45,530 bases of DNA from a virus (lineage: Duplodnaviria > Heunggongvirae > Uroviricota > Caudoviricetes). Shown piece by piece: positions 8,933 to 19,762 of this stretch (the stretch's first letter is position 1; each line of letters begins with the position of its first letter). The stretch is from IMG/VR virus record IMGVR_UViG_2721755643_000004. One strand, 5' to 3'. The notes under the pieces are model-generated. The model was not told the DNA's origin. It saw only the letters and a list, made by a program, of their open reading frames with translations, and ran no database searches. The translations under genes were made by a program, and so were the position numbers.

Positions 8933-9043
8933 TTTTCTTCTCCTTTCATGGCTGCTGATACTAAAGTAACAGAATATCTTGATACTTTGGATTCTCATGT
9001 TTAACATTCTTGGATAACAGAGTATCCGGTGTGAGGCTAAAGA
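8933..9043. promoter_or_regulatory. cI-cro divergent promoter/operator region
   Basis: 111-bp intergenic region between divergent regulators; contains TTGATACTTTGG and palindrome TACTAAAGTA. Confidence 0.55.
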
Positions 9044-9253
9044 ATGACCCTTTATGAAATATTAAAAACTCAATTTAAAACCAATGCCGCTATTGGCCGC
9101 AGGTTCCCAAAGAAAGGAAAGCCTCGTGGTAGTCAGGGAGTTGGAAAGTGGAAAACGCGGGGCGTTCCGGAGGATGTTGCCATTCTCTGCCATCTGGATC
9201 CGAACATTCCATATACACATCCAAGCTTAGCGCACACAGAGGATGAGAAGTGA
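9044..9253 (+). CDS. putative Cro-like early regulator (69 aa)
   Basis: Small basic ORF divergent from cI; call by position, sequence not confidently recognised. Confidence 0.5.
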   Translation: MTLYEILKTQFKTNAAIGRRFPKKGKPRGSQGVGKWKTRGVPEDVAILCHLDPNIPYTHPSLAHTEDEK

Positions 9254-9617: not shown

Positions 9618-9730
9618 GTCGAACCTCCTTTGGTTCTTTTGTTTATAGGGATCAAAAGGATAACTGAAGGATGGTTCGGCACCAACAAGTACGAATGTGC
9701 GGAATCTTAAAAGAATTTATCCGTAAGGAG

Positions 9731-10444
9731 ATGGCAGTGAACACCGCAATTTTTAACGACAAAGTATCCATGACCAGCGTTGAAATCGCAGAGCTGGTTG
9801 GAAGTCAACACGGCAATGTCAGAATATCAATAGAGCGTCTGGCAAAACGCGGGGTGATTCAACTTCCTGCAATGCAAAAAGTTGAGAACGAACAATCATT
9901 TAGCCAAAACAAATTCACAAACGCATATATTTTCGAAGGCGAACAAGGCAAACGCGACAGCATCATTGTCGTCGCACAACTTTGCCCGGAATTCACTGCC
10001 CGCCTGGTAGATCGTTGGCGCGAACTGGAAGAGCAGGTGCGCAAACCAATGAGCGAAATCGAAATGGTTGCCGCGATGGCTCTTGAAGCCGTTCGTCAGC
10101 AAAAACGCCTCGACAAGATGGAAGAAAAAGTCAGTCACGTTACTGAAACTGTCGAACAAATCAAAAGAGGCACCATCCGCGATGGTTATGCAGGCTACCG
10201 TCAGCTGGTGGCGAAAACGGGTATGTCAGATGCGAAATGCCGCAATCTGGTGAACGCCTATCAAATTCCAACTGATACTCACGAATTTCTTACTCCGGAC
10301 GGATTGTTGTCACGCCGCACAATTGTTGCAGTGGAACCGTTTATGGCTGCTTTCCATCGTATGATGAGCGAAGCGGAACCGAGAGGAACTCGTTGGTATC
10401 ACCCGAAAATGGGGCTGTTCCAGGCGCTGGGCTGGCAGGGGTGA
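9731..10444 (+). CDS. Rha-type antirepressor (N-terminal Rha-like domain) with shared C-terminal domain (237 aa)
   Basis: Start MAVNTAIFND; C-terminus paralogous to ORF 2697..3446. Confidence 0.75.
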   Translation: MAVNTAIFNDKVSMTSVEIAELVGSQHGNVRISIERLAKRGVIQLPAMQKVENEQSFSQNKFTNAYIFEGEQGKRDSIIVVAQLCPEFTARLVDRWRELEEQVRKPMSEIEMVAAMALEAVRQQKRLDKMEEKVSHVTETVEQIKRGTIRDGYAGYRQLVAKTGMSDAKCRNLVNAYQIPTDTHEFLTPDGLLSRRTIVAVEPFMAAFHRMMSEAEPRGTRWYHPKMGLFQALGWQG

Positions 10445-10463
10445 CGATGTTTACGGGTAATTT

Positions 10464-10640
10464 ATGCAAGTCCTCAATCGCTGGTTCCGTGACGGAAGGG
10501 GGCGTCGTGTTCACGTTATACGCTGGGAGCCTGAAACACAGCGGGTTATTTATCTGCGTGATGGTTATCCATATGAATGTTTCAGCCCGTTGTGGTTGTT
10601 CAGGCGTGATTTTGTGGAGTGTGAAGCGCCGCCGGAATGA
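10464..10640 (+). CDS. hypothetical small Cys-containing protein (58 aa)
   Basis: Unlisted ORF MQVLNRWFRDGRGRRVHVIRWEPETQRV...; weak RBS. Confidence 0.35.
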   Translation: MQVLNRWFRDGRGRRVHVIRWEPETQRVIYLRDGYPYECFSPLWLFRRDFVECEAPPE

Positions 10641-10661
10641 CGGCACGGTATATACGAAAAA

Positions 10662-11021
10662 TTACGCCGCCTTGCCCAGCGTAAAATCAAAGTGGATGTC
10701 GTCATACGGGAATGACGTTCCGCGCTCGCTTTTTTCCAGTAAACCGTTGCTGATGAGTGCGGTCACGTCAGTATGCACGCTTTTTACATCACGTCCAACC
10801 AGGGCTGCAATTTTTCGGATGGACATTTCTCCGGCACCAGTCATTGCCATCAGAATGTCCATGCGTTTTGGTGTCAGTACCTTATGCATCATTTGCCAGT
10901 CAGGAAATGAAATAACGTTTTCTCTGGTTGCTTTTGCTCCGGTAGCTGCTTCCTGGAACGCAGACAGCACATCAGCCGTGAAATTATCCATTGACTCGAT
11001 TCGGATTGTTACGGTTCTCAT
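10662..11021 (-). CDS. HTH DNA-binding protein, putative antitoxin/regulator (119 aa)
   Basis: Start MRTVTIRIESM 1 nt after stop of upstream ORF; HTH-like MSIRKIAALVGRDVKSV. Confidence 0.55.
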   Translation of the reverse strand: MRTVTIRIESMDNFTADVLSAFQEAATGAKATRENVISFPDWQMMHKVLTPKRMDILMAMTGAGEMSIRKIAALVGRDVKSVHTDVTALISNGLLEKSERGTSFPYDDIHFDFTLGKAA

Positions 11022-11022
11022 G

Positions 11023-11310
11023 TCAGATACCTCTGCGGATGGATTTAACGTCAGCCAGAAAATCAGCGAGCAGTTGTTCAATGGTGACAAAGCTGGTGCT
11101 GACTTCCTGACTACCAATGTGTTTGTGATCGCCTTTACCCCGTTCGTTGTCGTAACGCATCACACACATGCCATCAACGACATAAGCCATGCTGTATTTG
11201 TAGTTGTGCTGGCTACCCAATACAGCAGGCTCCACTTCCCATATGCGGATTCGTATGTATTCAGATTCACCGAGATGACGGATGAACTGTTTATACAGTC
11301 TGGATGGCAT
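11023..11310 (-). CDS. putative toxin-like small protein (95 aa)
   Basis: RBS GAGGAA; tightly coupled to downstream HTH gene; family not recognised with confidence. Confidence 0.5.
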   Translation of the reverse strand: MPSRLYKQFIRHLGESEYIRIRIWEVEPAVLGSQHNYKYSMAYVVDGMCVMRYDNERGKGDHKHIGSQEVSTSFVTIEQLLADFLADVKSIRRGI

Positions 11311-11664
11311 TTAAAGCTTCCTCTGGTTCTTGTTGTAAACAATAACAACAAGGCTTCGCGTTGTCCACAGCTACAACATTTTGATATTGATTCTGCAAGT
11401 CCGGGACGTTACACTGTTCCGGCACCTTATAAAACGGGTGCCGGGATTTGCACCCCGGAATTGATCAAGGCGATATACGACGCGCCAGCGTCTTTTTTAT
11501 CGTCCACGCTCACGCACGCCAGAATTATGGTGGGCTGGGCAGGGGAGCCGAAAGGCTCGCCGGTTTCCTTGATCGCCGGTAGTGCAAACCCTGTTCAGTC
11601 CGCCACCAGCGAGATTTGCACCTCCGGTGGTGGAAGTATTTCACCGATCAAGGAGGCTGCCATT

Positions 11665-12396
11665 ATGGCTACGATCCCAGTTTCCCCATTCCTCAAAATC
11701 GAAGTCGTCAACGGTAAGGCCGTTACTACATCTCTTTTCGGATATCTCAAACTGTTGCGCCTTGCTGGTGTTCCGGGTTATATTTCTCGCGTTGCTGTAA
11801 ATCCAGCAACCGGGCTTCGCATCCCGAAACATCACACAGGGCTGACACGCCATAAGCGTGTTTTTTTGTCTACGCACGTCTATTCAATGGCGGCTCAGAT
11901 GGGAGCTTCTTCGGAAGCGCCGGTTTTCCCTTGTGTGTCCGGTAATGCGAATCCTGTCTGGGCTGCCACCAATCATGGTTTCGCATCCGTGGGTGGTAGC
12001 TGTAAAGCACACACACAAGGGGCTGTCACCATGACTACCACCACTACTCACCCATTCCTCAAAATCGAAGTCGTCAACGGCAAGGCCGTTATTTTCTCTT
12101 TGCATGTGGCCTGCCACTTTAAGCGCATGCACCAGAACATCGTCGACAAAATCGAGTATCTGAACTGCTCGCGCGAATTTTTTACCCGCAATTTCATACC
12201 GGGTACTTACCACATCTATGACGACTCTCTGCGTGGTTATTACATCACCCTTGATGGTCTGATGCTGCTTCAGCTTGGGTTAAGTCTGCGCACAATGCGG
12301 TACTACGAGAGTTGCATTGAAGCGTTCCATGAGGCTGAAACCAGCCTGAATCATACCGCTTTCCGTCGTAATCAATGGGAGGCGCGTCATGTGTAA
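11665..12396 (+). CDS. hypothetical protein (243 aa) with duplicated N-terminal motif PFLKIEVVNGKAV; may be two fused units
   Basis: ATG with AAGGAGG RBS; second in-frame ATG at 12031 with AAGGGG RBS; each preceded by a near-identical structured leader. Confidence 0.4.
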   Translation: MATIPVSPFLKIEVVNGKAVTTSLFGYLKLLRLAGVPGYISRVAVNPATGLRIPKHHTGLTRHKRVFLSTHVYSMAAQMGASSEAPVFPCVSGNANPVWAATNHGFASVGGSCKAHTQGAVTMTTTTTHPFLKIEVVNGKAVIFSLHVACHFKRMHQNIVDKIEYLNCSREFFTRNFIPGTYHIYDDSLRGYYITLDGLMLLQLGLSLRTMRYYESCIEAFHEAETSLNHTAFRRNQWEARHV

Positions 12397-12622: not shown

Positions 12623-12843
12623 TTCGCCGCATCGTTAATTCTCTGTATCACCGATACAACCGTTGCCCCCGTGTGGGGCAGTGGTTTGCCACCAGCAACG
12701 GTCACGTTCTGCGGGTTTGCCTGGTCAGCACCGAAAACCAGAAAGTTGTGTGTGAATTACTGGGGCGTAGCTACACCATCAGTTACCCACTGGTGGTGTT
12801 TCAGTCCGGAAAAATGTTTAAACGCCTGGGAGGTGCTGTGTGA
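12619..12843 (+). CDS. hypothetical protein (74 aa)
   Basis: ORF, ATGA overlap with upstream. Confidence 0.5.
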   Translation: MIRRIVNSLYHRYNRCPRVGQWFATSNGHVLRVCLVSTENQKVVCELLGRSYTISYPLVVFQSGKMFKRLGGAV

Positions 12844-13139
12844 ACTGTTTTCAGTTTGTGTGCGGAAGTGTTTTCGATAATCCGATTCAGCGCCTGATTA
12901 TGTTGCGTGTTTGGATGTCGGGGTCTTCAGACGGGGAAGGTGAGAGAGTTATTGAGCACCAAGTGCTTGCCGATTTTTGTTGCTGTTCAAAACAAGCGAT
13001 GTTCAGAGAAACCCTGGCCCTGGAAAGGGCGGGACATCTGCATATCCGAAAAATTGCAACGCTTACCATTGATGCAAAAGCCCGACTCCAGCCTGCCCGT
13101 GGTTACACAATTGTCATGCCGCGTAAGGAGGCTGTATGA
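12840..13139 (+). CDS. hypothetical protein (99 aa)
   Basis: ORF coupled to replication initiator gene. Confidence 0.5.
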   Translation: MNCFQFVCGSVFDNPIQRLIMLRVWMSGSSDGEGERVIEHQVLADFCCCSKQAMFRETLALERAGHLHIRKIATLTIDAKARLQPARGYTIVMPRKEAV

Positions 13140-14128
13140 GTCGTTATGCCCCCACACCGGAAGTTATGGCTATTGGTCAAATTAATATTTCCGGCAATGT
13201 CACACCGACAACCTGGTGGAAACATATCCAGCTACCCAGTGGGCGTCCGGATGCGACAGCCATTGCGCTGCTTTCAGAGATTGTTTACTGGTATCGCCCG
13301 ACAGAAGTCAGGGATGAGCATACAGGGGCTTTACTGGGATATCGCAAGCGTTTTCAGGGTGACAAGCTGCAAAGAAGCTATCAGGCGTTTGCTGAGCAGT
13401 TTGGCTTTGGGAAAAGGGAAACCGCAGATGCGCTGAAGCGTCTTCGTGACGCTGGGTTTATTACTCTGGATTTACGCACGGTGGAAATGCTAGACGGGGT
13501 GAAATGCAGCAATATTTTGTTTGTCGGGATCAACCCACAGGCAATTGCTGCCATCACCACACCTTCTTCTGTTTCGCCAGAAAGTAACAGCAATAACGCA
13601 ATCAGCGATACAGCTATTACGTTAAAACGGAACACCCCCCAACGTCATAACGGAACAGGGGATACGCCGAATGTTGATACAAATACAGAGATTACTACAG
13701 AGATTACAACGGAGACTAAAAACACTATTGGCGCATCCGCTGACGCGTCTGCACCAGCGCGTTCTTCCCGACAGGAATATTCACCGGAATTTGAACAGGC
13801 CTGGCAGGAATATCCCAAACGTGCTGGTGGCAATTCCAAGTCAGCAGCCTTCAAAGCCTGGAAAGCCCGTATCAGGGAGGGAATAAAACCGGAGACCATG
13901 CTTGATGGCGTGAAGCGGTATGCTGCCTGGGTACGTGCCACAGGAAATACCGGCACACAGTTCGTGAAGCAGGCTGCGACGTTCTTTGGACCCGATCGTC
14001 ACTTCGAAGACTTCTGGCAACAGCCAGCCGCTCCCGGAGGTGGGCGACAGCGACAGGTCGATGTCCTGGCTGGCCTGGGAGCCATGTCTGACAAATTCGG
14101 TAAATCCAGTGACAAACTGACATTCTGA
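13136..14128 (+). CDS. phage replication initiator / replisome organiser (330 aa)
   Basis: Position upstream of DnaC/DnaB-like genes; low-complexity linker TEITTEITTET encoded by short direct repeats. Confidence 0.65.
   Translation: MSRYAPTPEVMAIGQINISGNVTPTTWWKHIQLPSGRPDATAIALLSEIVYWYRPTEVRDEHTGALLGYRKRFQGDKLQRSYQAFAEQFGFGKRETADALKRLRDAGFITLDLRTVEMLDGVKCSNILFVGINPQAIAAITTPSSVSPESNSNNAISDTAITLKRNTPQRHNGTGDTPNVDTNTEITTEITTETKNTIGASADASAPARSSRQEYSPEFEQAWQEYPKRAGGNSKSAAFKAWKARIREGIKPETMLDGVKRYAAWVRATGNTGTQFVKQAATFFGPDRHFEDFWQQPAAPGGGRQRQVDVLAGLGAMSDKFGKSSDKLTF
13685..13717. repeat. direct repeats ACAGAGATTAC x2 plus partial third inside initiator gene; candidate origin iterons
   Basis: Seen directly; lambda ori lies analogously in the middle of gene O. 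Confidence 0.35.
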
Positions 14129-14129
14129 G

Positions 14130-15017
14130 GTGACAGCGATGATGACGTTTAACCTGCGTGAACAACAAAAAAGACTACAGGCGCGAATGGATGAGTTACG
14201 GGCAGAGATTGCATTTGCTCAGAAGGGCGAAAAGCCATGGCCTTATCGTTCCTGCCTGATGCGTGAAGGTCGCGGATATTGCGAAAAACATGGCGAATAT
14301 CACACGCATATACTGGTGTGGAGCGATCGTAATGGCGAGGACAGAGAAAAAATTTCATGCTGCCCTGACTGCTTAATCGCTGAGGCCAACGATTTGACCA
14401 TGGAGCTGTCGTCCATCAAGGCGGAAGAGCTGACTGATAACGCCGGAATTGCCCTGCGTTTTCGGGACTGCGAGTTTGATAATTATCTGGAGGTTAATCC
14501 TGACGCAGCCAGAAATCTTGCGGCCTGTCGCCGCTATGCGGAGAACTGGCCAGATATGCTGGAGAACGGTACCAGTCTTGTTATGACCGGCAGTTGTGGT
14601 ACCGGAAAAAATCATCTGGCTGTGGCTATGGCAAAACACATCATCCGTAACTATCTGGCCAGTGTGGAGATCACCGACGTGATGCGCCTTACCCGTGCTG
14701 TGAAAAATTGCTGGCGGAATGACAGCGAAAAAACAGCGGATGAAGTTATTGAGCGTTATGCGTCAATGGATTTGCTGATCATCGACGAAGTTGGCGTTCA
14801 GTTTGGCAGCGCGGCTGAAATGGCTATTTTGCAGGAAATTATCAACGCCAGGTACGAAAGTATCTTGCCCACCATTCTGATCAGTAACCTCTCACCGGAA
14901 GAGTTGTGGGCGTTCATCAGTCCCCGAATTGCCGACAGGATCACAGACGGGGGACGCAACTGGTTGTCGTTTAACTGGCCCAGTTACCGTTCTCGTATCA
15001 GAGGTGTGGCTGCATGA
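14130..15017 (+). CDS. DnaC-like AAA+ helicase loader (295 aa)
   Basis: Walker A GSCGTGKNHLAVAMA and Walker B LLIIDEVG; Cys/His-rich N-terminus. Confidence 0.8.
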   Translation: MTAMMTFNLREQQKRLQARMDELRAEIAFAQKGEKPWPYRSCLMREGRGYCEKHGEYHTHILVWSDRNGEDREKISCCPDCLIAEANDLTMELSSIKAEELTDNAGIALRFRDCEFDNYLEVNPDAARNLAACRRYAENWPDMLENGTSLVMTGSCGTGKNHLAVAMAKHIIRNYLASVEITDVMRLTRAVKNCWRNDSEKTADEVIERYASMDLLIIDEVGVQFGSAAEMAILQEIINARYESILPTILISNLSPEELWAFISPRIADRITDGGRNWLSFNWPSYRSRIRGVAA

Positions 15018-16405
15018 CAACTCCAGTATGGCGTAACGATGACCTTGAAGGCGCTGTCATCGGCGCGTTCTTTCTGCGCGGAGCAGATCCTGAAGTGATG
15101 GATATTCTGGCCACACTGCCAGCGGACGTTTTTTCTGTACGAGCGTATCAGGATATCTATACAGGCATCTGCAGACAGGCCCGTGTTTCAGGAGTGATTG
15201 ACCCCGTGCTGTTGTGTAATGAGATGCCGGAACTTGCCCCGGTGATTACTGATACCGGGCGTAAAACCTGGGTGAAGTCTTCACTGGAGCACTATGTTGC
15301 AGCGTTGCGGCGCAATGCCGCACTGCGCGATGCAGAAAAAACACTGAACGAGGCATTACAGAAATTACGCGATGCGCATACCTGTGAAGCAGCTGAAGAT
15401 GCCCTGAAGGATGCGCAGAACATGATGGTCACACTGTCGACAGGAAAGGGCGTCATTCAGCCGGTACATATTGATGATGTGCTTCCGGAAGTGGTTGAGC
15501 GTGTTGAATGCCGGAATCAGGGGCTGGAGAAATCCAGGACGTTGATGACCGGTATTGATGAACTGGACGCAAAAACAGGCGGCATGGAGCCCGGCGACCT
15601 GGTATTTATTGCGGCTCGTCCTTCGATGGGGAAAACCGAACTTGCGCTGGACATCATCGACAAGGTGACTGAGCAGGGGCATGGTGTGCTTCTGTTCACC
15701 ATGGAGATGGCGAACATCCAGATTGGTGAACGTATGGTGTCTGCGGCTGGAGGGATGCCAGTATCACGCCTGAAATCTGTGGCTCACTTTGAAGATGAAG
15801 ACTGGGCGCGTTTCTCACAAGGGGTGGGGCGGATGACCGGGCGCAATATCTGGATGGTGGACCAGGCGAACCTGACCATTGATGAGATATGCGCAACAAC
15901 GAAACACCATCTGATTAAACATCCGGAAACGGCGCTGGTGGTGGTTGATTATCTCGGGCTGATAAAAACCCGAACCACGGGGCGTCATGACCTTGCCGTG
16001 GGTGAAATCTCAAAGGGGCTTAAAGGCCTGGCAAAATCCGGTGGTTTTCCGTTGATTGCGCTGAGCCAGCTCTCCCGCGGTGTGGAGTCCAGACCCAATA
16101 AACGTCCCATGAACTCAGACCTGAAAAATTCCGGAGAAATAGAGGCGGATGCAGACATCATTCTGATGCTTTACAGGGATGAAGTGTACAACCCGGATAC
16201 GCAGGCCAGGGGCATCGCAGAAATCAATATCACGAAACAACGTAACGGTTCTCTGGGAACGATTTACCGGCGTTTTTATAACGGACATTTTCTGCCTGTG
16301 GACCAGGAAAGTGCACGGGTGCTTTCCACTCCCATGAAGCCCGGCAATCCGCGCAGATACAGTAATAAACGAACTTACAGCAGTAAGATGGAGCGTTTCT
16401 TTTGA
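15014..16405 (+). CDS. DnaB-family replicative DNA helicase (463 aa)
   Basis: Walker A ARPSMGKTELAL; RecA-like C-terminal domain motifs. Confidence 0.9.
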   Translation: MTTPVWRNDDLEGAVIGAFFLRGADPEVMDILATLPADVFSVRAYQDIYTGICRQARVSGVIDPVLLCNEMPELAPVITDTGRKTWVKSSLEHYVAALRRNAALRDAEKTLNEALQKLRDAHTCEAAEDALKDAQNMMVTLSTGKGVIQPVHIDDVLPEVVERVECRNQGLEKSRTLMTGIDELDAKTGGMEPGDLVFIAARPSMGKTELALDIIDKVTEQGHGVLLFTMEMANIQIGERMVSAAGGMPVSRLKSVAHFEDEDWARFSQGVGRMTGRNIWMVDQANLTIDEICATTKHHLIKHPETALVVVDYLGLIKTRTTGRHDLAVGEISKGLKGLAKSGGFPLIALSQLSRGVESRPNKRPMNSDLKNSGEIEADADIILMLYRDEVYNPDTQARGIAEINITKQRNGSLGTIYRRFYNGHFLPVDQESARVLSTPMKPGNPRRYSNKRTYSSKMERFF

Positions 16406-19452: not shown

Positions 19453-19528
19453 GGCCCTTTAGCTCAGTGGTGAGAGCGAGCGACTCATAATCGCCAGGTC
19501 GCTGGTTCAAGTCCAGCAAGGGCCACCA
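19453..19528 (+). tRNA. tRNA-Ile2 (anticodon CAU, lysidine type; could be scored as Met)
   Basis: Cloverleaf with anticodon loop CUCAUAA; close to E. coli ileX by recollection; CCA encoded. Confidence 0.8.
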
Positions 19529-19529
19529 A

Positions 19530-19606
19530 CCACCACTAGCTCATCCGGATAGAGCATCAACCTTCTAAGTTGACGGTGCGAGGTTCGAGTCCTCGGTGGT
19601 GGGCCA
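19530..19606 (+). tRNA. tRNA-Arg (anticodon UCU)
   Basis: Acceptor CCACCAC/GTGGTGG; anticodon stem TCAAC/GTTGA, loop CTTCTAA; T-arm GGTTCGAGTCC. Confidence 0.8.
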
Positions 19607-19608
19607 GC

Positions 19609-19684
<76 letters not shown>

Positions 19685-19687
19685 TAT

Positions 19688-19762
<75 letters not shown>

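Follow-up and report, generated by a model that had tools for sequence, protein, structure and literature searches.

A TumE-like gene coupled to a winged-helix gene in a lambdoid prophage of Escherichia coli: a candidate type II toxin-antitoxin cassette

The IMG/VR virus record IMGVR_UViG_2721755643_000004 (Caudoviricetes) is a stretch of DNA of 45,530 nucleotides, referred to here as the window. At positions 10662 to 11310 of its minus strand lie two small genes, separated by a single base, with products of 95 and 119 amino acids (aa). This pair is probably an autoregulated, self-contained type II toxin-antitoxin (TA)-like cassette of the TumE superfamily that a lambdoid prophage carries as a 'moron'. 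The product of the first gene is a TumE-family protein, and that of the second a winged helix-turn-helix (wHTH) protein of the HVO_A0114 family for which 'TumA-like' is used as a functional label, TumA not being a homology family. The genes and their ribosome-binding sites are as follows.

11023..11310, minus strand: tumE-like gene, putative toxin, 95 aa (ATG at 11310, TGA at 11025-11023)
11318..11323, minus strand: Shine-Dalgarno sequence GAGGAA of tumE, 7 nt ahead of the ATG (sequence reading)
10662..11021, minus strand: HVO_A0114-family wHTH gene, putative antitoxin/autorepressor ('TumA-like'), 119 aa (ATG at 11021-11019, TAA at 10664-10662)
11030..11034, minus strand: Shine-Dalgarno sequence AGAGG of the 119-aa gene, within the 3' end of tumE and 8 nt ahead of the ATG (sequence reading)
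10657..10684, minus strand: terminator-like hairpin overlapping the TAA stop of the 119-aa gene and followed by TTTTT (terminator scan)

The 95-aa protein belongs to a recognized family. Its match to the Pfam model TumE (PF20126, formerly DUF6516) scores 56.5 bits against a cut-off of 23.4 (E = 2.8e-15) and covers model positions 6-80 of 81. All 107 homologues found match the same model. The protein also matches phrog_16135, and in RefSeq it carries the name 'toxin-antitoxin system TumE family protein' (WP_001141117.1). In the AlphaFold2 model (predicted local distance difference test, pLDDT, 94.8) six beta strands precede a single long C-terminal helix; a sequence search of the PDB gave nothing for this protein. 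A near-invariant hairpin, Y53-D-N-E-R-G-K-G-D-H-K-H64, is accompanied on the neighboring strand by the near-invariant residues S33, H35, K38 and Y39; in the model these could together form an active or binding surface.

The 119-aa partner matches Pfam HVO_A0114 (PF25212) with 87.2 bits, where the cut-off is 27.6 (E = 6.5e-25), while other wHTH families in Pfam match it only below threshold. The RefSeq entry, WP_001300492.1, is named 'HVO_A0114 family putative DNA-binding protein'. Its AlphaFold2 model (pLDDT 82) consists of an N-terminal strand and helix, a linker of low confidence, and a wHTH domain of the ArsR/MarR type; the top Foldseek matches of the model are ArsR/MarR-type regulators. 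Sequence searches of the PDB gave weak, generic wHTH matches only, and among the models of PADLOC-DB 2.0 it is matched only by those of Csa3/CasR/CARF, and there only in the wHTH part. Many NCBI records call this protein 'glycosyl transferase family 1', which looks like a propagated mis-annotation. For the HVO_A0114 family of wHTH proteins, no functional study was found in the searched literature.

The layout of the two genes can be read directly from the DNA. A first-pass annotation, made from the letters alone, had described a 95-aa open reading frame (ORF) with ribosome-binding site GAGGAA, a 1-nt gap and a 119-aa partner on the minus strand, and all of these are found in the sequence. It had proposed a search with profile hidden Markov models (HMMs), and with Pfam both proteins score above cut-off; its guess that the first protein is TumE-like is borne out by the PF20126 match, far above threshold, and by the RefSeq name. 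The single intergenic base is the C at 11022, so that stop and start are arranged as TGA-C-ATG. A mechanical ORF list gave a TTG-started version of the downstream ORF with 151 aa. The homologues of the 119-aa protein begin M-[RK]-T-V-T-I throughout, and for this reason the ATG at 11021, not the TTG, is taken as the true start.

Both genes are under strong purifying selection. The ratio of nonsynonymous to synonymous substitution rates (dN/dS) was obtained against diverged prophage copies from a Stx1c phage, Salmonella and Serratia, with usable dS values of about 1.4 to 3.3; it is 0.07-0.14 for the tumE-like gene and 0.06-0.09 for the partner gene. Because dS was saturated, no value could be given for tumE vs its Salmonella copy. 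A TGA-N-ATG junction is kept in all three copies. With the Pfam E-values given above, dN/dS and this conserved junction, the two genes are not chance ORFs.

The arrangement is also conserved over long distances. When one genome per GTDB species was scanned, at least 590 loci showed the motif [YF]DNERGKG, and a profile search of 1.84 billion representative proteins gave 1,964 clusters (50% identity) at E <= 1e-3. This TumE-like subfamily ranges over Enterobacterales, Burkholderiales, Rhizobiales, Chromatiales, Acidobacteriota and Planctomycetota. Eighty GTDB loci were retrieved, two of them on contigs that stop about 80 nt past the TumE gene and are uninformative; in 78 of the 78 others a gene of the HVO_A0114 family lies directly 3' of the TumE gene on the same strand. 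The offset from the end of the TumE ORF to the start of the partner HMM match is -34 to +77 nt in these loci. The pair is thus bicistronic, with the toxin homologue first.

Upstream of tumE, a promoter-like element and two operator-like palindromes occupy the same short stretch of DNA.

11339..11367, minus strand: sigma-70-like promoter of the pair (promoter scan, consensus match)
11331..11350, no strand assigned: operator-like palindrome O2, TGTTG-N10-CAACA, spanning the -10 hexamer (motif scan)
11359..11378, no strand assigned: operator-like palindrome O1, with one mismatch, spanning the -35 hexamer (motif scan)

The promoter consists of a -35 element TGGACA (11367-11362), a 17-nt spacer and an extended -10 element TG-TATTGT (11344-11339). 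The same layout, with TTGACA as the -35 element, occurs in the Stx1c-phage copy and eight other lineages. O2 is the sole perfect TGTTG-N10-CAACA in the 45.5-kb window and extends to 8-nt arms. In the Stx1c-phage copy, which has 77.6% DNA identity, the operator half-sites are kept and the spacers differ, and in homologous loci generally the half-sites are conserved and the spacers diverged. When at most one mismatch is allowed, 43 of 75 GTDB loci have TGTTG-N9-11-CAACA in the 90 nt ahead of tumE, with two or more sites in 30. The density of such palindromes is 10.2 per kb upstream of tumE vs 0.107 per kb elsewhere in those loci, a difference of about 96-fold.

The half-sites change with the partner protein. 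Other clades have TGATG..CATCA or TATGG..CCATA at the equivalent operator positions, and within a lineage both arms of O1 and O2 switch half-site class together. Residue 79 of the partner, which opens the recognition helix (R-D-X-K), was compared with half-site class among 99 distinct partner proteins. It is V or I in all loci of the CAACA class (64/64), F in those of the CATCA class (19/19) and Y in those of the CCATA class (16/16), and the mutual information between residue 79 and half-site class equals the full label entropy, 1.29 bits. Together with the conserved palindromes, this covariation makes a good, though indirect, case for binding of the wHTH protein to its own promoter. The operators overlapping the promoter, and their covariation with the recognition helix, appear to be new in this analysis. 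The first-pass annotation had suggested a type II TA or small regulatory addiction module, and the TA-like reading gains from membership in the TumE family, the ever-present wHTH partner and the co-varying operator-like palindromes on the promoter.

A different leader is seen in part of the family. In enteric copies the leader measures about 20 nt and includes a Shine-Dalgarno sequence. In 30 non-enteric GTDB loci (e.g., L038, L053, L071) the second half-site overlaps the start codon (CAACATG; …TCCAACATG), and the overlapping half-site sits a few bases past a -10-like CATAAT. This suggests that the mRNAs of these loci may be leaderless, with the operator lying over the start codon.

From these features a mode of action can be proposed. 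The sigma-70 promoter at 11367-11339 would drive a bicistronic minus-strand mRNA. The 95-aa protein, a minimal version of the TumE fold, would arrest growth through inhibition of translation, possibly as an RNase, by homology with its relatives. The second gene would be translationally coupled to the first through TGA-C-ATG, and its 119-aa wHTH product would neutralize TumE by direct binding, a role for which the co-occurrence of the two genes and their coupling speak; probably as a dimer, the same protein would repress the operon via the two TGTTG-N10-CAACA palindromes on the -35 and -10 elements. Expression of the cassette in a lysogen would run antisense to the early-right operon and not depend on it, and the cassette might act as an addiction, stabilization or abortive-infection module. 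Toxicity, neutralization, the target of the toxin, repression of the promoter and a benefit to prophage or host are what we infer for this pair.

The reference system is TumE-TumA, defined by Durairaj et al. 2023 (Nature 622:646; PMC10584680). In that work six gammaproteobacterial DUF6516 proteins arrested growth of E. coli and each was neutralized by its cognate partner, and one TumE lowered the incorporation of 35S-methionine (PMC10584680). The present pair resembles TumE-TumA in that the first protein is small and of the same Pfam family, PF20126, the genes form a two-gene operon, the partner is predicted to bind DNA, and the genes occur in Proteobacteria and on mobile elements. The differences are that the toxin homologue comes first here, unlike in clusters 1, 2, 4 and 6 of the paper (PMC10584680), and that the partner is an HVO_A0114 wHTH protein. 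The paper makes no mention of a prophage location or of adjacency to the RNA genes isrK and C4 described below (PMC10584680). Most cluster-1 partners are uncharacterized hypothetical proteins (PMC10584680). The specific TumE/TumA-like assignment that the first-pass annotation had offered as a guess stands in part: homology places the pair in the TumE family, but the partner is not a RelB-like TumA homologue and is encoded downstream, where the validated TumA genes lie upstream of the toxin gene (PMC10584680). Family matches of the 119-aa protein comprise HVO_A0114 and generic wHTH families only, with none of RelB type.

Several points weigh against reading the pair as a TA cassette. The six validated pairs come from subcluster 1a of cluster 1, in which the toxin is predominantly downstream, and one cluster-1 partner family is a remote homologue of RelB (PMC10584680). 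The validated toxins are apparently about 110-135 aa, judged by synthetic gene lengths, vs 95 aa here, and RNase activity of TumE is proposed only, catalysis being unproven for the validated members (PMC10584680). The published fold is alpha+beta, a seven-stranded antiparallel sheet with two packing helices and no PDB homologue (PMC10584680), vs six strands and one helix in the 95-aa model. No NCBIfam or PADLOC model matched the 95-aa protein. Full-text literature searches on TumE returned as relevant only the 2023 Nature paper and its preprint, and such searches found no experiment on this subfamily. Part of the correlation between operators and residue 79 could be due to common descent of gene clades. 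Neither the promoter nor the terminator is more than a consensus match; the hairpin, with an 8-bp stem and a centroid energy of -10.2 kcal/mol, has a z-score of -0.39 against shuffled sequence, and it is called only 'terminator-like' because its energy is indistinguishable from that of shuffled sequence.

Other families give a precedent for the gene order. HigBA, MqsRA and HicAB are toxin-first type II TA systems in which a coupled antitoxin with a DNA-binding helix-turn-helix acts on palindromic operators at the promoter. Here too the toxin homologue lies upstream, coupled to a DNA-binding partner, and palindromes overlap the promoter. Public databases already assign both proteins to these families, and as a member of the recently described TumE superfamily the pair is rather ordinary.

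By its surrounding genes the window is a complete lambdoid prophage of E. coli.

1-1314, minus strand: integrase
8276-9007, minus strand: LexA/S24-type repressor
9044-9253, plus strand: Cro-like ORF
9671-10444, plus strand: Rha
10464-10640, plus strand: DUF4222
12840-16405, plus strand: replication initiator, helicase loader and DnaB-type helicase
19453-19762, plus strand: four tRNA genes (Met-CAT, Arg-TCT, Thr-TGT and Gly-TCC) in the late-regulatory region
Further right: lysis, head and tail genes

The pair has Rha and DUF4222 on one side and the replication genes on the other, all on the plus strand, which agrees with the antisense setting between antirepressor and replication genes that had been claimed for it. 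DUF4222 was considered as a third component of the cassette and rejected: tblastn matched it only in closely related E. coli (O121) and Salmonella prophage loci. By Pfam, DUF4222 genes adjoin the pair in Serratia and are located elsewhere in a P4-like satellite, and none was found in the GTDB loci (mostly non-phage) fetched at that stage. A second TA-like pair lies in the early-left region of the window (6222-6627, minus strand).

6222-6440, minus strand: ORF with a ParE_like toxin domain (PF24732, 63.7 bits)
6412-6627, minus strand: 71-aa ORF upstream of and overlapping the ParE_like ORF, with no family match

The TumE pair is rare in E. coli genomes and in phages and is found in several kinds of replicon. 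Identical DNA is annotated in RefSeq in E. coli O121 and other strains, and the pair is present over most of its length in 17 of 5,426 complete E. coli genomes (RefSeq). Lambdoid prophages of Salmonella and Serratia have it in the same slot and on the opposite strand, between cro/cII/DUF4222 and the replication genes. Phage phiSTEC1589-Stx1c carries it in another slot, with the replication genes before it and an antirepressor gene after it. The pair also occurs in a P4-like satellite and in plain chromosomal contexts, in 74 of 72,556 plasmids, in 74 IMG/VR contigs and in one of 50,697 deposited phage genomes. Its distribution across prophages, a satellite, plasmids and chromosomes is that of a mobile, self-contained cassette, rare in phages.

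Within enterobacterial mobile elements, the pair often has particular neighbors on the other side of its promoter.

11422-11498 and 11791-11866, plus strand: isrK RNA, copies 1 and 2 (above Rfam gathering scores)
11523-11610 and 11883-11973, plus strand: C4 antisense RNA, copies 1 and 2 (above Rfam gathering scores)
12031-12396, plus strand: 121-aa ORF with an N-terminal Rha domain, after the second C4 (29.2 bits vs a cut-off of 29.9)
11275-12396, plus strand: ORF annotated 'ash family protein' (RefSeq / Pfam Phage_ASH)

The two tandem isrK/C4 units are directly upstream of the tumE pair and divergent from it. E. coli O121 strain 201805972 has a single unit; relative to it the window has a tandem duplication of about 366 nt, and the first 20 or so codons of the 121-aa Rha-domain ORF are duplicated after the first C4 copy. 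IsrK is an RNA of Gifsy-1 that controls an antirepressor-like gene (PMC4825925). The succession of isrK/C4 RNAs and a Rha-domain ORF resembles a P1-type immI arrangement. In the immI regions of P22 (mnt / arc-ant) and P1 (c4-icd-ant), a small repressor-type gene is divergent from an RNA-controlled antirepressor operon. The likeness is one of neighborhood only, C4/isrK family matches and then a Rha-domain ORF adjoining the pair; TumE and HVO_A0114 are unrelated to Mnt, Arc and C1, and they are widespread without any immI module.

A back-to-back arrangement of the pair with isrK and/or C4 is not peculiar to the window: the O121 strain has it, as do the Stx1c phage, Serratia prophages, the P4-like satellite and four other IMG/VR lineages. 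The association persists where the cassette sits elsewhere in the phage genome. In three diverged lineages 111 nt separate the 5' end of isrK from the tumE ATG, and the divergent-promoter region between them is conserved (11311-11421 in the window, 8684-8796 in L002 and 5890-6000 in L087; also in L117 and L119). A probable isrK promoter, with its -35 at 11387-11392 and its -10 at 11410-11415, is 9 nt from the edge of O1. Serratia prophages L087, L089 and L106 have four tandem units of isrK/c4-a1b1, C4 and Rha (about 3145-5902 in L087). The Rfam scan gave no adjacent isrK/C4 in Salmonella lambdoid prophages, in L113 or in two non-phage loci. The Pfam Phage_ASH match (about 11410-11686) and the RefSeq 'ash family protein' coding sequence (CDS) coincide with the isrK/C4 RNA genes, and in Serratia the ASH and Rha parts are predicted by gene callers as fused proteins of 223-331 aa; the 'Ash' family may be largely the conceptual translation of an RNA leader, or the region may be dual-coding.

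The plus strand opposite the pair has an unusual property, seen in the phage-borne copies and in most of those borne by satellites. Its antisense frame is stop-free over 648 nt, as part of a 2-kb open frame at 10393-12396 (667 aa). Of the other copies examined, those of diverged lambdoid prophages are open as well, as is one P4-like satellite group; the frame is closed in chromosomal enteric copies and in the closely related IMG/VR contig group L108-L115. Fully open frames occur in 8 of 29 lineages of similar G+C content, all of them prophage- or satellite-borne. Resampling of synonymous codons predicts 0.67 open lineages (Poisson tail 6e-7). This null lies about ten times below the base rate seen in real genes, 6.3%, with which the binomial tail is 3e-4 and the significance correspondingly weaker. 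What is conserved is the openness and not the protein, since the antisense translations are only 55-66% identical between copies. One idea is that translation of the open frame shields the early transcript from Rho-dependent polarity.

The open frame also raises the question of whether both minus-strand ORFs could be shadows of the 667-aa plus-strand ORF (partly 'ash'). That frame is stop-free over the whole pair, and the RefSeq ash CDS overlaps the 5' end of tumE by 36 nt, as a shadow origin would have it. However, both minus-strand proteins have strong matches to curated families, and their conservation extends to phyla in which the antisense frame is not open. In the minus-strand frames dN/dS is about 0.07, and the antisense translation is less conserved, at the identity just given, where the TumE and partner proteins are about 67-87% identical. 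The Pfam matches of the plus-strand ORF all fall outside the pair. A shadow origin is hardly credible and can be ruled out by the family matches, the minus-strand dN/dS and the poor antisense conservation.

Two further explanations accept the genes and give them other roles. It is unlikely that the pair is a dedicated anti-phage defense, acting by abortive infection or superinfection exclusion with toxin released on infection, and that plasmid or prophage addiction is not its main role, although this account overlaps the TA cassette favored here. A layout like that of a moron, on the strand opposite the flanking genes, with a separate promoter and a recurrent slot in prophages and the P4-like satellite, would suit a defense gene, as would the patchy rarity in E. 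coli genomes (17/5,426) and the ParE-like toxin gene elsewhere in the same prophage; satellites and prophages are known to concentrate defense genes. Against it, PADLOC gave no TumE match and the partner matched only the wHTH part of Csa3/CasR models, and most copies are chromosomal or plasmid-borne, with only the one phage record in 50,697 and the 74 IMG/VR contigs. Little credence is given to the pair being primarily a regulator of the neighboring P1-type immI-like module. Its wHTH protein, divergently transcribed like P22 Mnt, would silence the antirepressor operon in the lysogen, and the TumE-like protein would serve in co-regulation or sensing, not as a growth-arresting toxin. Such a role would account for the recurrent adjacency of isrK/C4 across phage, prophage and satellite lineages, for the 111-nt spacing in three lineages and for the mere 9 nt between O1 and the isrK -35. 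But the same pair with promoter-overlapping operators is found in hundreds of non-phage loci without phage context; the two non-phage loci scanned with Rfam, the Salmonella lambdoid copies and L113 are without isrK/C4; it is with respect to the tumE promoter, not the isrK promoter, that the operators keep a fixed position; and relatives of TumE are experimentally toxic (PMC10584680).

Elements of these readings can be combined. In enterobacterial prophages and satellites the pair and the divergent isrK/C4-Rha switch might be one functional cassette and not a free-standing addiction module, with the wHTH protein or the TA complex setting both promoters and toxin release tied to antirepressor expression and prophage induction. 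As the cassette sits antisense within an early operon, selection may keep the opposite frame stop-free, which could let translation pass through the insert and so avoid Rho-dependent polarity on the downstream early genes. This combined proposal is rather doubtful, and the autoregulated TA-like cassette of the TumE superfamily remains the preferred reading.

If the 95-aa protein proves toxic and can be neutralized by its partner, the pair would represent the first toxin-first subfamily of TumE, with the first wHTH (HVO_A0114) antitoxin and a minimal toxin of 95 aa. It would then also be a rare accessory module of prophages in pathogenic E. coli, O121 strains and Stx1c phages among them, with possible effects on how stable the prophage is or on resistance to other phages. 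For the wHTH family, the covariation of operator class with residue 79 provides a testable code for DNA recognition.

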